Part shown: in pieces, positions 59,211 to 64,000 of the stretch
Position numbering within the stretch: position 1 is the first letter of the stretch
How the letters are laid out: the number at the start of each line of letters is the position of its first letter
Source of the DNA: Archangium sp.
GTDB taxonomy: Bacteria; Myxococcota; Myxococcia; Myxococcales; Myxococcaceae
Assembly (NCBI RefSeq): GCF_035633935.1
Contig: NZ_DASQDY010000434.1
Coordinates: forward strand, 1,007-65,006
Reading direction: 5' to 3'
Length of the DNA stretch: 64,000 nt
The notes under the pieces: model-generated
The model's input: the letters and a program-made list of their open reading frames with translations, nothing else
Database searches by the model: none
What the model was told of the DNA's origin: nothing
Translations under genes and position numbers: made by a program

Positions 59211-60101
59211 ATGTCCGCGGAAGCCGCAGCTCCTGTCCTGAAGCTTGTTCAGCAGCCCTCGCTGCGCGAGAGCCTGTTCGCCAAGAGCGATGCGTACCGG
59301 CTCTACCAGGGCGACAGCCTGGCGCTGCTCGAGCAGTTCGAGCCGGGAACCTTCGACATGGTGTTCGCCGACCCGCCCTACTTCCTGTCCAACGGGGGCT
59401 TCACCTGCAAGAGCGGCAAGCGCGCCGCGGTGAACAAGGGCGGCTGGGACGTGTCGCGCGGGGTGGAGGAGGACCACGCGTTCACCACGGCCTGGCTCAA
59501 GGCCTGCCAGCGGGTGCTCAAGCCCACGGGGACCATCTGGGTGAGCGGCACGCAGCACGTCATCTTCTCGGTCGGCTTCGCGATGCAGAAGCTGGGCTAC
59601 AAGCTGCTGAACACCGTCACCTGGTACAAGCCCAACGCCAGCCCCAACCTGGCGTGCCGGTACTTCACCCACTCCTCCGAGCTGCTCATCTGGGCCTCGC
59701 CGAAGCCGGCCGCGAAGCTGCAGCACACGTTCAACTACGCGAAGATGAAGGCGGAGAACGGCGGCAAGCAGATGCGCGACGTGTGGGCGCTGCCGCGCAC
59801 GGGCGACGAGGAGCTGGCCGCCGACGAGTCCGGCCGCGTGTGGACGATGACGGCGCCGCGCCGTGAGGAGAAGGCGCACGGCAGCCACCCCACGCAGAAG
59901 CCGGTGTCGCTGCTGGAGCGCGTCATCGAGGCGAGCACCCCCGAGGACGCGCTGGTGTTGGACCCGTTCAACGGCAGTGGCACCACGGGCGTGGCGGCGC
60001 TGAAGCTGGGCCGGCGCTACGTGGGCATCGACCTGGACGAGCAGTACCTGAAGCTGTCGCAGAAGCGCCTGGCCGAGGCCGGGCGCACGGCGGGCCGGTA
60101 G
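59211..60101 (+). CDS. Orphan N4/N6 DNA methyltransferase (beta class)
   Basis: FADPPY before HPTQKP and DPFNGSGTTG; host-like codon usage; no cognate nuclease adjacent. Confidence 0.92.
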   Translation: MSAEAAAPVLKLVQQPSLRESLFAKSDAYRLYQGDSLALLEQFEPGTFDMVFADPPYFLSNGGFTCKSGKRAAVNKGGWDVSRGVEEDHAFTTAWLKACQRVLKPTGTIWVSGTQHVIFSVGFAMQKLGYKLLNTVTWYKPNASPNLACRYFTHSSELLIWASPKPAAKLQHTFNYAKMKAENGGKQMRDVWALPRTGDEELAADESGRVWTMTAPRREEKAHGSHPTQKPVSLLERVIEASTPEDALVLDPFNGSGTTGVAALKLGRRYVGIDLDEQYLKLSQKRLAEAGRTAGR

Positions 60102-60171
60102 TCGTCCACCGTCAGGGGCTGGCCGCCTTCAGATCGACGTTCCGTTGACGTGAAAGCAGCACCTACCTAAG

Positions 60172-60895
60172 GTGGCCTCCCCTACAGACTTGAGCGACAC
60201 CATGGTCACTGCAACGGAACTGTGCGAACTGGCTCAGGAGAATCTGATTCGTGCATCGAATGCACTGAACGGCCAAATCACTGAGAAGCTTGCCAAGGCC
60301 ATGCTGGCCGACATTCCCAGCTTTGCGAAGCTGAAACTTGGTGCCGCCGTCAAGGTGTTCGCCGTTGTGCTCTTCGTGGACATGCGCGGTTCGACCAAAC
60401 GGGCCATGCGCATCGGCCCGGAAAAAACATTCCTCACGATGCACGCGCTGCTTCCTGTGCTTGCGAAGCTGATCGAAGCGAACGGCGGGTTCATCGTCGG
60501 GTATCGAGGTGATGGGCTCTTCGGCGTATTCGGAATCAGTAGCCAGGGGAAGAATCCTCCCAAGTTGGATATGCGCAGTCTCCTTCAGCAGGCGGCGACT
60601 TGCGGAATGCAGATGGTTGAGGCTGTTGAGCGAGTCGTCTCTCCCGCGTTGGAGGAATATGGCGTTCCTGGGGCTAAATATCGGCTTTGAAGTGACCGCG
60701 TACGGCGATGCGATCAACCATGCAGCTAAACTTTGTGCGCGTGCATCAAACGAAGTCTATTTGTCAGACGACGCTGATGAGAAGTACCCGACCGGGCATG
60801 GTGGCAAGGTCTGGACGACCCCCGTTCTTGATAAAGACGAGCTTGATACTGCCGGCGTCAAATTCCATTACCCCTCGCATATGCTGGAAGACTGA
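60172..60895 (+). pseudogene. Class III nucleotide cyclase (Pycsar PycC-like), frameshifted and probably internally deleted
   Basis: VLFVDMRGST and GYRGDGLFGVF in one frame (stop 60690); YGDAINHAAKL in the +1 frame; switch at the G4 run 60670-60673. Confidence 0.75.
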
Positions 60896-60900
60896 CTCCT

Positions 60901-61446
60901 GTGTCTCCTCCGAATCCGCCTCCACCCCCCATCGCGCCAGCAAGCACCGAGGAACTGCGCGAGTTCGCTTGGCGAGTCCGTGCATATACCAATGAGTACA
61001 TCCGATTTGCTGATGCAAAAGCGGGTGCGGTATTTACCATTGGCTCGGCTGTCGTCGGAGCGCTCTGGGTGTCAAAGGCCCACCTCGCATTCGTTGATTC
61101 GAGCCCAAGTGCGTGGAGCGGTCGGGCATGGCTGATGCTCCTGTCATTTATTCTCCTCGTTGTTGGCTTGCTTACGTCCGGACTTGCTGTGTTGCCACGC
61201 CTCTGGTCGACACAGGGTAGTCCGGGGTTGATCTTCTGGGAGCGAGTTTCAGGGCACTCATCGGGCGCCAGTTACTGGACTGCGCTCACGGCAAGTACAC
61301 CTGAGGATCTTTCACGTCATGTGGCCGAGCATGTCTACGACCTCGCCAAGGTGGCGCGAGCCAAGTATCGATTGGCAAATGTTGCAACCAATGTGACGCT
61401 GTGCGGAGCCATCCTTGGTGGCGCATTGCTGGTGCTAGGAAAATAG
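60901..61446 (+). CDS. Pycsar transmembrane effector (PycTM/DUF5706-like)
   Basis: YIRFADAKAG, two TMs ending AVLPRL, GLIFW, DLAKVARAKY, C-terminal TM; 5 bp after the cyclase. Confidence 0.82.
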   Translation: MSPPNPPPPPIAPASTEELREFAWRVRAYTNEYIRFADAKAGAVFTIGSAVVGALWVSKAHLAFVDSSPSAWSGRAWLMLLSFILLVVGLLTSGLAVLPRLWSTQGSPGLIFWERVSGHSSGASYWTALTASTPEDLSRHVAEHVYDLAKVARAKYRLANVATNVTLCGAILGGALLVLGK

Positions 61447-62103
61447 ACGGCCAGTTTAAGCGGCGCGCCAGAGCGTGTTGAGCTGTCCTCCCGGACGCGA
61501 CGGGAGCGCGAGCTGGTTCTCCAGCACGTAGCAGGCCAGCTCGCAGTTGCCTTGGCACCTTACCCCGGCTCAAATTTCTAGGTCACCTTGCTGCAGCGAT
61601 GCAGCCGCCGAGTTGCTCCGTCTCAGCAGGGCGGCTGGCTATTACAGCGAATCGCTGGTGGGAGAACGCGTGCAGCGCAGCGACAACAGCCGCTGGATGG
61701 GAGGCCCAACGCTTGCGCCACCCCGGGGCAGCCCGAGGCCCCCGTTCGCAGCGCAGCGGCAGCGCGCGGCTCCCTGTCGTCGGCGCGGCCAACTCCCACT
61801 GGTTGTGCTCCTCGGGGCGCGCGAGCAGCGCAACCGCGCCGTTCCGGGGCCCGAGCACCCCGGAAGTTTGCTGCACGGCGCCAGGCACGTCGGCGCTCCG
61901 CACGCTTCCTGGACAAGGGCTGCTACCGGAGGAAGTGCGGTGCCTGCTTCTCGCATCGGTTCCGCCTGTCGAACTGGTGCTGCAGGACCTTGCTGCAGGC
62001 GGGGAGGGCGGTGGCGCTACACGGGGCATCCCCTTCGCTGCACTGAGCGCGGCCCTTCTTCCACCTGTCTTCCGTGAACGTCATATCCGAGCACTTGCTC
62101 GTG

Positions 62104-62844
62104 TCACTCGCCGGAGGGCTCGGGTTCCGGACGTCCGATGAGGTCCGCCCGGTCCAGCAGTTCGCGTACGCGTGCGGTGAACGCCACGTGCTCGGGGTTG
62201 CTCGCTGTCATGGGCTCGGGGGAGAGGACGAGAAGCCAGCCCAGCGCGCCCACCGGCTCAATGCTCACGGGGGCGGGCAGCGGTGGCAGCGTGCCCAGGC
62301 GGCGCGACAGGTACGTCAACCAGCCCACCCGCATCTCCCACTTCCTCTTCTGGACGAGGCGGACCATCTCGGTCGAACTCGCTATGGCGTAGTCGGGGTC
62401 CCACGCGCTGACCATGCTGGTGAGCACCTCGGCCAGCACCGGCGCACGTAGGAGCCGCTCTCGTATCGCGCCCTGCCTGGTCGGGTTCAGCAGGCACGAA
62501 TTGGGTCCTCCCCACGGCGAGTATTTGCCACAAGAAAGGTGGATGTTGGTGGCCTCCTTCCTGGCATTCCACACCATCTGGCTGAAGCCCATGTCCTCAA
62601 GGACCTCTTTGCCAACACCGCGGTGCCTGCCCTTCAGGAAGAATTCCTCCAAGTCCTTCATCTCCGGGCGGACAGGCCAGCCTGGCAGCTCGCGGGGGAA
62701 GCCACGGCCAGCCCGGTACCATTGGGTGAACGACGGGTCACACCGCGCCAACGTGTGGAAGAAGAGCTCCGCGCGCCGGGCACACTCCAGCGCTGTTTCC
62801 TTTCTCGGACCCCAGTACGCCCCTGCGTAGTAGTCCTCCTGCAT
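62104..62844 (-). CDS. Imm52-like immunity protein
   Basis: ATG 62844 after AAGGAG; YAGAYWGPRKE...ECARRA, MVSAWDPDY, VGWLTYLSRR, VEPVG-like ...LVLSPEP. Confidence 0.78.
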   Translation of the reverse strand: MQEDYYAGAYWGPRKETALECARRAELFFHTLARCDPSFTQWYRAGRGFPRELPGWPVRPEMKDLEEFFLKGRHRGVGKEVLEDMGFSQMVWNARKEATNIHLSCGKYSPWGGPNSCLLNPTRQGAIRERLLRAPVLAEVLTSMVSAWDPDYAIASSTEMVRLVQKRKWEMRVGWLTYLSRRLGTLPPLPAPVSIEPVGALGWLLVLSPEPMTASNPEHVAFTARVRELLDRADLIGRPEPEPSGE

Positions 62845-64000
62845 GCGTGCTCCTTTCCCTCTCGCGCTGGTGGCGTATGGCGGACGGTGATGTTGTCCCA
62901 TCCTTCTTTCTCGAAGATTTTACGGAGGAACTCCGCGACATTGGCATCGGCGACATGCCAGATCACCGGCAGCCCTACCTGCTGGGCCATCTTCGACTGG
63001 TCCGCGGCTTGTCTCAGCATCTCGTTGAACTTTCCGGAATTCACATACCAATACTTGGGAGTGCCATCCGCGTTGAAGAAGGAGCAATAGCCGGGGCCCT
63101 TGGCCTCCAGCAGTTCCCTGACCTTGAAGCCGTCGAACTCCACCTTCCCGATCATGTACACCCACCACGCGGGCCGTCCCGTCACCTGCTCCTGATAGTC
63201 CAGGGAGTCCTTGGAGTCGGTGGTGGGCTTCTTGTACGTCCACCTGCCGGGCCCCTGCGCCGAAGCTGTCTTGGAGGACTTCCCCGCCTTGCCTCTCGCG
63301 CCGCCGGTGCTTCCCTGGCCTCTACCCGCCATGTGGAGGATGGAGAGGGCGCCCAGGTCCATGCCCATCGTGGTGGTCGTCGTGCCTCCCGCCACGACTG
63401 CTCTGCCCAGTACCATCTCGCCCCTGGCCGTGAGCGACAGCACCGGCAGTTCCGCACCCAGTCCGCCCATTCGCCCCACCGTGGCCTTCGCGCCCCCGAG
63501 CATCATGATGACGTGCGTGGACAGGCGCGCCGCCTCGCGTATCTGGTCCTCCCGGGACATGGCGCCGTAGCGCGCGAAGTATTCGGGCGAGGAGGCAATG
63601 AGGTGGGCCACCGTGGTGGGCAGTTGCGCGAGGTCCTCCACGGTGCGGATGGGGTGGAGGATGGACTGAGCCAGCGCAATGGCCATCTCCCCCAGGGCGT
63701 CCTGGGCCCCGTCGAGTGCGGCGTTGAGCGGGTCTCGTCCCAGGCCCAACTCGGCCAGGGGCGGGCCGTCCGCGCGCCGCAGGGCCTCGGTGACCGGGTA
63801 GAAGACGCCACCATGCGAGAAGTAGAAGTCGCCCACCGCGAGGCGGCCCACCTTCCACTCGCCCTCTACGAGCTCGAGAGGGCCCATGCGCTGGATGGGT
63901 GTGCCGGTGAGCGCGGCCACCAGGTACCCATCCGGACGCACCAGCACCAGGAGCCCGAAGCGCTCGGCACGCCATTTCAAATCGGCGTACTCCACGCGCT
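62658..64000 (-). CDS. Polymorphic toxin with C-terminal Tox-REase-5-like nuclease (5' end off the window)
   Basis: DYQEQVTG, VEFDGF, LLEAKGPGY, QAADQ, VIWHVA; frame open to the window edge; directly upstream of the immunity gene. Confidence 0.82.
   Translation of the reverse strand, partial: RVEYADLKWRAERFGLLVLVRPDGYLVAALTGTPIQRMGPLELVEGEWKVGRLAVGDFYFSHGGVFYPVTEALRRADGPPLAELGLGRDPLNAALDGAQDALGEMAIALAQSILHPIRTVEDLAQLPTTVAHLIASSPEYFARYGAMSREDQIREAARLSTHVIMMLGGAKATVGRMGGLGAELPVLSLTARGEMVLGRAVVAGGTTTTTMGMDLGALSILHMAGRGQGSTGGARGKAGKSSKTASAQGPGRWTYKKPTTDSKDSLDYQEQVTGRPAWWVYMIGKVEFDGFKVRELLEAKGPGYCSFFNADGTPKYWYVNSGKFNEMLRQAADQSKMAQQVGLPVIWHVADANVAEFLRKIFEKEGWDNITVRHTPPAREGKEHACRRTTTQGRTGVRERKQRWSVPGARSSSSTRWRGVTRRSPNGTGLAVASPASCQAGLSARR

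Follow-up and report, generated by a model that had tools for sequence, protein, structure and literature searches.

The window, by which we mean the whole 64,000-nt stretch of Archangium sp. DNA analysed here, carries a horizontally acquired cassette of the Pycsar kind, in which a PycC cyclase is followed by a PycTM effector. The cyclase appears to have been lost to a 56-nt deletion and the system to be dead by ordinary decay. We put the probability of this reading at roughly 0.88. The cassette belongs to a known kind of system and does not represent a new one. Although the effector gene is whole, the system is almost certainly dead, and the orphaned effector is most likely silent baggage, probably inert.

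In an intact Pycsar system, phage infection activates the cyclase, a cyclic mononucleotide binds the membrane effector, and the resulting membrane damage aborts the infection. In the window, a single 56-bp deletion has taken out the central β-hairpin of the cyclase (19 residues) and shifted the reading frame. Translation now stops six codons past the junction, with everything from the Asn-bearing GDAIN motif onward out of frame. Such a cyclase should be unable to fold or to make the signal, and the system would be unable to fire. With a putative ribosome-binding site of its own, the effector gene remains whole, but its product would be inert without the signal. Most likely the effector is still intact because the deletion is recent and an effector that receives no signal costs nothing. 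No protection from phage is expected of the locus, because its cyclase is probably dead.

The cassette lies on the plus strand. The N-terminal fragment of the cyclase occupies positions 60202 to 60690 in frame 1 and encodes 162 residues from the ATG at 60202; an in-frame GTG is present at 60172. Read from either start, frame 1 gives ...LFVDMRGST...GYRGDGLFGVFG...EEYGVPGAKYRL* (60172/60202-60690). Both metal-binding aspartate motifs (LFVD and GDG) are present, within the class III motifs LFVDMRGST and GYRGDG. Past the deletion junction the fragment continues as GAKYRL and ends at a TGA stop (60688-60690). Ten PADLOC PycC models match it (best PDLC02367, E 2.7e-15), and the generic Guanylate_cyc model of Pfam matches weakly. 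The C-terminal remnant of the cyclase (60671-60895) is read in the +1 frame (frame 2), as GLNIGFEVTAYGDAINHAAKL...HMLED*, with the TGA stop at 60893-60895. It retains the GDAIN motif and has no additional stop or indel over about 74-75 codons. The PycTM effector follows at 60901-61446 as an intact open reading frame encoding 181 residues, and its GTG start (60901) is 5 nt past the cyclase stop. A Shine-Dalgarno-like GGAAGA (60886-60891), 9 nt ahead of this GTG, is the putative ribosome-binding site. In a DNA alignment, the intact relative on metagenome contig L004 has GGAGGA at identical spacing.

Upstream of the cyclase, an 11-mer, GTTCCGTTGAC (60139-60149), is conserved between the window and L004 in the same alignment and may be a −35-type promoter element. 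A σ70 consensus scan of positions 60000-61700 found no promoter. A terminator scan of the same interval returned one terminator-like site, which lies within the effector; this is below chance expectation. There was no Rfam match at E values up to 0.1 between 58000 and 64000, and no sign there of a frameshift element or riboswitch. The gene callers split the cyclase into two open reading frames, and both callers give the same 162-residue product (P0002). In the genome record and in the Logan contig described below alike, the effector is called only as a 103-residue protein from an internal ATG (P0054, 61135-61446). Homologues and the PADLOC model place its true start at the GTG at 60901.

Querying 5.8 billion proteins with the cyclase read-through returned 52 relatives. 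The closest intact one, P0001, has 249 residues and is 75 % identical over 96 % of the query. It is encoded on metagenome contig L004/L005, where a 186-residue PycTM follows it. The N-terminal fragment is 82 % identical to residues 1-158 of P0001 and the C-terminal remnant is 76 % identical to residues 175-249. P0001 matches PDLC02367 with an E value of 5.9e-28 over model positions 9-186. A Foldseek search with its AlphaFold model (mean pLDDT 85.9) retrieved class III cyclases with E values down to 6e-13.

DNA alignment of the window with intact L004/P0001 shows one clean gap of 56 nt, equal to 19 codons minus one base. The junction is at 60667-60674 and includes the run of four G residues (60670-60673) at which the initial annotation had already placed the frame change; the shift is +1. 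The size of the gap accounts both for this frame change and for the missing strand. The residues lost, in the P0001 version, are GVKVGVGIDMGEIIVTRIG. Between ...VP and GLNIGFEV, each of the 13 aligned homologues carries 19-20 residues, none of which is present in the window. The absence of the IRIGIxxG strand, noticed originally from the letters of the window, is thus borne out. The gap of 56 nt rules out simple slippage at the G run, and the earlier preference for a deletion over slippage was right. A single 56-nt event and a 57-nt in-frame deletion combined with a 1-nt insertion would leave the same sequence and are indistinguishable here.

The lost segment is the central β-hairpin, which carries the class III cyclase element RIGIHTGxVVxGxIG. 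In the P0001 model it forms a pair of strands (residues 161-175) with pLDDT values of 95-96. HMMER aligns the hairpin to LEMGIGINTGEVVVGNIG of the guanylate cyclase Cya2 (PDB ID: 2w01) and to LRHVVGIDTSQLRTARIG of BcPycC (PDB ID: 7r65). It contains three invariant residues of the family (G162, T173, and I175) and one that is nearly invariant (G164, 14 of 15 members). The family has 45 columns that are conserved in 14 or more of 15 members; the window has all of these except four, which fall inside the deletion. The scores on PDLC02367 fall from 95.8 bits for P0001 to 60.8 bits for the window read-through and 54.4 bits for the N-terminal fragment. Nowhere in the window does one frame hold a complete cyclase fold, with the pair of metal-binding aspartates, the hairpin, and the Asn motif. 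Judged from its reading frames, the window cyclase is a pseudogene, and its ancestor, if P0001 is a guide, had a complete cyclase. The structure suggests that the present product can neither fold nor work.

Two readings would leave the locus with a working cyclase. One is that the lesion is an assembly artefact or a minority variant, and that the true genome has an intact cyclase and a functional system. The draft genome is fragmented into 748 contigs and the frame change falls at a homopolymer, as this reading would have it, but a 56-nt gap is no homopolymer error of a single base. In an independent assembly of SRR6517654 by Logan, contig L017 (2,462 nt) matches window positions 59744-62205 with 100 % identity and no gaps, although L017 and the genome assembly possibly share their reads, and contigs would hide a minority intact allele. 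Its gene calls include the same truncated 162-residue cyclase, so that both gene callers give the truncated product. We consider an artefact highly improbable. The other reading is that the short cyclase works in its present form, whether through a programmed +1 frameshift that yields a 240-residue product without the hairpin or as an enzyme in two pieces. The +1 frame is indeed open for about 75 codons past the junction and keeps GDAIN, and the N-terminal fragment has both metal-binding Asp residues. Such an enzyme would nevertheless have to dispense with two central strands of the sheet, modelled with pLDDT of about 95, and with the three invariant residues and one nearly invariant residue that they hold. 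All 13 aligned homologues have the hairpin, as do both solved cyclases whose alignments were inspected, Cya2 and BcPycC. The read-through reaches 60.8 bits on the PycC model as against 95.8 for the intact relative, and neither a slippery site or stimulator nor an Rfam match was found at the locus. A functional short cyclase is hardly credible, and loss of the cyclase by deletion is the reading that we retain.

The effector scores 54.7 bits against Pfam PF18967 (PycTM, Pycsar effector protein), for which the curated cut-off is 27.2. It also matches the PADLOC PycTM model PDLC02364 with an E value of 1e-24, from position 3 to position 144 of the 160 in the model. Its alignment with homologues of 186-193 residues extends over the full length, and it keeps every residue that is invariant in an alignment of six sequences, of which the window sequence is one. 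AlphaFold models it as wholly helical (pLDDT 77), with three long helices. Hydropathy shows strong membrane segments at about residues 76-98 and 160-180, and a weaker one, below threshold, at about 41-57. The effector is of the three-helix pJV1-spdB3 type described for Pycsar and Pucsar. A Foldseek search of the effector model against the PDB (April 2026 copy, which holds no PucTM structure) returned nothing at E < 0.1.

The PADLOC PycC models do not discriminate between Pycsar cyclases and housekeeping ones. The genome has at least eight other class III cyclases, which are 24-32 % identical to the window cyclase. True reading frames were recovered for four of these (L008, L010, L013, and L015), the other four loci being on the minus strand. 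The four with recovered frames are long multidomain proteins with IGIHTG...GDTVNxASR motifs, of the canonical purine-cyclase type: a fusion with a response regulator, a membrane protein, and fusions of the FHA-GAF and cyclase-ATPase types. Housekeeping cyclases match the PycC models at 1e-12 to 1e-32, with up to 111 bits (PDLC00734), and the four score equal to or above the Pycsar-type cyclase. A match to a PycC model without effector context is therefore no evidence of Pycsar, because housekeeping cyclases score as high. For this reason, the Pycsar call rests on the conserved pairing with a PF18967 effector, on the short stand-alone architecture, and on the start of the match at model position 9 of PDLC02367. 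The match thereby includes the N-terminal extension, whereas matches of the housekeeping enzymes start at positions 39-44.

Estimates of dN/dS against L004 are 0.13 for the N-terminal part of the cyclase, 0.11 for the out-of-frame C-terminal remnant, and 0.10-0.11 for the effector. With dS at 0.8-1.3 (about 0.9), these ratios cannot date the deletion precisely. Since the dead remnant is as constrained as the live parts, nearly all of the divergence appears to be older than the deletion, and the loss appears to be recent. In absolute terms too, the deletion is probably recent. For the same reason, the low dN/dS of the effector is uninformative about present selection. The description of the effector as intact and recently orphaned agrees with these data: the invariant residues are kept, dN/dS is about 0.11 throughout, and no other conserved residue of the cyclase has been lost.

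An orphaned effector could still be in use. It would be gated by a cyclic nucleotide from a host cyclase, from a phage, or from neighbouring cells, and the locus would still give some defence or serve another membrane function. The effector has a complete open reading frame, its invariant residues (with the window in the alignment), an SD-like site of its own, and dN/dS of about 0.1, and the genome offers at least eight other class III cyclases. The dN/dS is equally low in the dead remnant, though, and so reflects history before the deletion and not present selection. Our search of the genome found no second PycC-like cyclase, its cyclase matches being at 24-32 % identity, and one PycTM only. 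The cyclases whose frames were recovered are multidomain and carry canonical purine-cyclase motifs, and an effector opened by housekeeping cAMP or cGMP would be toxic. The cassette is also missing from all 40 relatives. Continued use of the effector is unlikely in our estimate, and the earlier suggestion that it responds to a signal made elsewhere found no support. A more specific form, in which the effector is kept as a "listening" part and is opened by a nucleotide that comes from a phage or a neighbouring mobile element, or that kin make and pass between cells, we regard as distinctly unlikely. If it were true, the loss of the cyclase would be a step towards signal-sharing or trans-activated defence in a social myxobacterium. 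We prefer the reading of a silent effector left behind by a recent deletion.

The cassette coincides with a low-GC island (60102-61500) with 55-60 % GC, compared with 67-77 % in the flanks; the cassette itself has 57 % GC and the myxobacterial genome 69 %. Homology to the intact L004 cassette is limited to positions 60169-61468. We considered whether L004 might be the same locus in a sister strain, and unrelated flanks ruled this out. The cassette is absent from the 40 relatives examined, 17 of which belong to the same genus, and is thus not conserved in the lineage. On its left is a conserved N6/N4 DNA methylase gene (59211-60101, plus strand; PF01555, E 5e-58). The upstream block from rpmE to this methylase is 88-94 % identical across the genus. 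Synteny with seven genomes of the same genus stops at 60091-60107, at the methylase stop codon. Downstream of the methylase, the DNA of four relatives is unrelated to that of the window, varies in length, and is for the most part different in each; the cassette is thus in a variable spot. The DNA there in these four also contains shared blocks at shifted offsets. The region past 60091-60107 looks like an insertion hot spot. As all four relatives differ downstream of the methylase, a comparison with an empty site leaves the right-hand border of the insertion undefinable. Base composition, absence in relatives, homology that ends at the cassette edges, and the break in synteny together indicate that the cassette is horizontally acquired.

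To the right of the effector, positions 61447-62103 comprise about 650 bp with 68 % GC, no clear codon-phase signal, and no Rfam match. Two short pieces of this DNA (about 61676-61753 and 61830-61901) turn up at several sites in genomes of the same genus and nowhere else in this genome. Beyond it, on the minus strand (62104-63995), Pfam identifies an Imm52 and Tox-REase-5 pair. In PADLOC, the candidate system PDC-M17 matches the pair as well (B 1e-94, A 1e-156). As both Pfam and PADLOC match, the same genes are filed under two headings, polymorphic toxin-immunity pair and candidate defence system.

PycTM adjoins a homologous cyclase in L004/L005, L038, L039, L040, and L042, and is separated from it by one open reading frame in L043. 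No PycTM was found near the homologous cyclase in L041. The Pycsar architecture proposed at the outset thus stands, with PADLOC PycC and PF18967 matches and a pairing that recurs in six related loci; on the window itself, the suggested PADLOC check matched both the PycC (2.7e-15) and PycTM (1e-24) models. The cyclase has few named relatives. Five come from Kofleriaceae, Labilithrix, two Planctomycetota, and an Alcaligenaceae MAG, with PycTM adjacent in four of the five. Further relatives are proteins of Corallococcus and Sorangium. A relative on a viral contig (IMG/VR, L043 4425-7119) has a cyclase 54 % identical to that of the window with PycTM nearby. The additional open reading frame in L043 has about 300 codons and lies between the cyclase and the PycTM homologue; L043 may be a three-gene variant of the cassette. 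Relatives of the cyclase on plasmids are distant, at most 34 % identical. At the cyclase-effector junction, L004 has a 9-nt tandem duplication (1226-1243, TGACTCTCG TGACTCCTG) that the window lacks. Because the duplication is in L004 only, the effector start is shifted by three codons between the two.

The weight of this case is small. It is a clean and well-dated example of the decay of an abortive-infection system, in which the signal generator went first and a potentially toxic effector was left intact and silent. A literature search on degraded Pycsar loci returned nothing relevant. For annotation, a pipeline based only on HMMs could call this broken locus a complete Pycsar system. The PADLOC PycC models call for caution, as they score housekeeping cyclases as well as real ones. 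The locus also points to a little-sampled subfamily of PycC-like cyclases in Myxococcota and Planctomycetota, with an F/R/F pocket.

Among described systems, the clade B Pycsar with a transmembrane effector is represented by BcPycC of Burkholderia cepacia LK29 (PDB ID: 7R65) with PycTM (Tal et al. 2021, per PMC11224242). We took 7R65 to be BcPycC on its residues Y50, D94, and R97, as cited. The window cassette resembles clade B in that a PF18967 effector follows a stand-alone, single-domain class III cyclase of about 230-250 residues whose N terminus carries a helical extension. The two best PADLOC models, PDLC00766 and PDLC02367, are the same for BcPycC (residues 25-186) as for the window family, but BcPycC scores 243-267 bits on them and the window family 96 bits. 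Because these models are shared, clade B would be the nearest described clade, but remotely. The uracil pocket Y50/D94/R97 of BcPycC is replaced by F68/R112/G115 in the window family, and the window copy differs further in being frameshifted and in lacking the central hairpin. The family profile matches 7R65 with an E value of 6e-12 and, weakly, 8JSZ (AnPycC) with 1.6e-5. Assignment of a clade by similarity to PDB entries was tried and rejected, as generic adenylate and guanylate cyclases are as close as the solved PycCs in both sequence and fold. Of the alignment to an intact PycC that the initial annotation proposed, the sizing of the gap succeeded (56 nt against P0001); the clade came out as B only remotely, with PDB similarity undiscriminating.

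Clade D is represented by AnPycC/AnPycTM of Anabaena (PDB ID: 8JSZ), with the pocket F60/K104/F109 and a C-terminal zinc ribbon (C221, C223, C260, and H263) as its hallmark (PMC11224242). The window system likewise has a TM-type effector. The AnPycC pocket and F68/R112/F117 of the window family occupy the same offsets (two residues before the first metal Asp, and two before and three after the second), and the spacing from Asp to Asp is 44 in both. The zinc ribbon has no counterpart by eye in P0001, which has one Cys in its C-terminal third and no CxC...C..H pattern.

PucsarTM combines a cGMP-making PucC with a 3TM effector of the pJV1-spdB3 family and defends by abortive infection through membrane assembly (bioRxiv 10.64898/2026.08.12.744502). 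PfPucC recognizes guanine with a glutamate, E118, four residues before the metal aspartate D122, and with Lys195 (bioRxiv 10.64898/2026.08.12.744502). The window cassette shares its two-gene layout and its effector family with PucsarTM. At the position of the PfPucC glutamate, the window and its closer homologues have a glycine instead (G110, in IVG[FY]RGDG). The cCMP/cUMP signalling that the initial annotation gives for the Pycsar architecture may not carry over to the window subfamily, because its pocket residues depart from those of BcPycC and because Pucsar, a sister branch, makes cGMP. For the nucleotide of the window subfamily, we lean slightly towards a pyrimidine.
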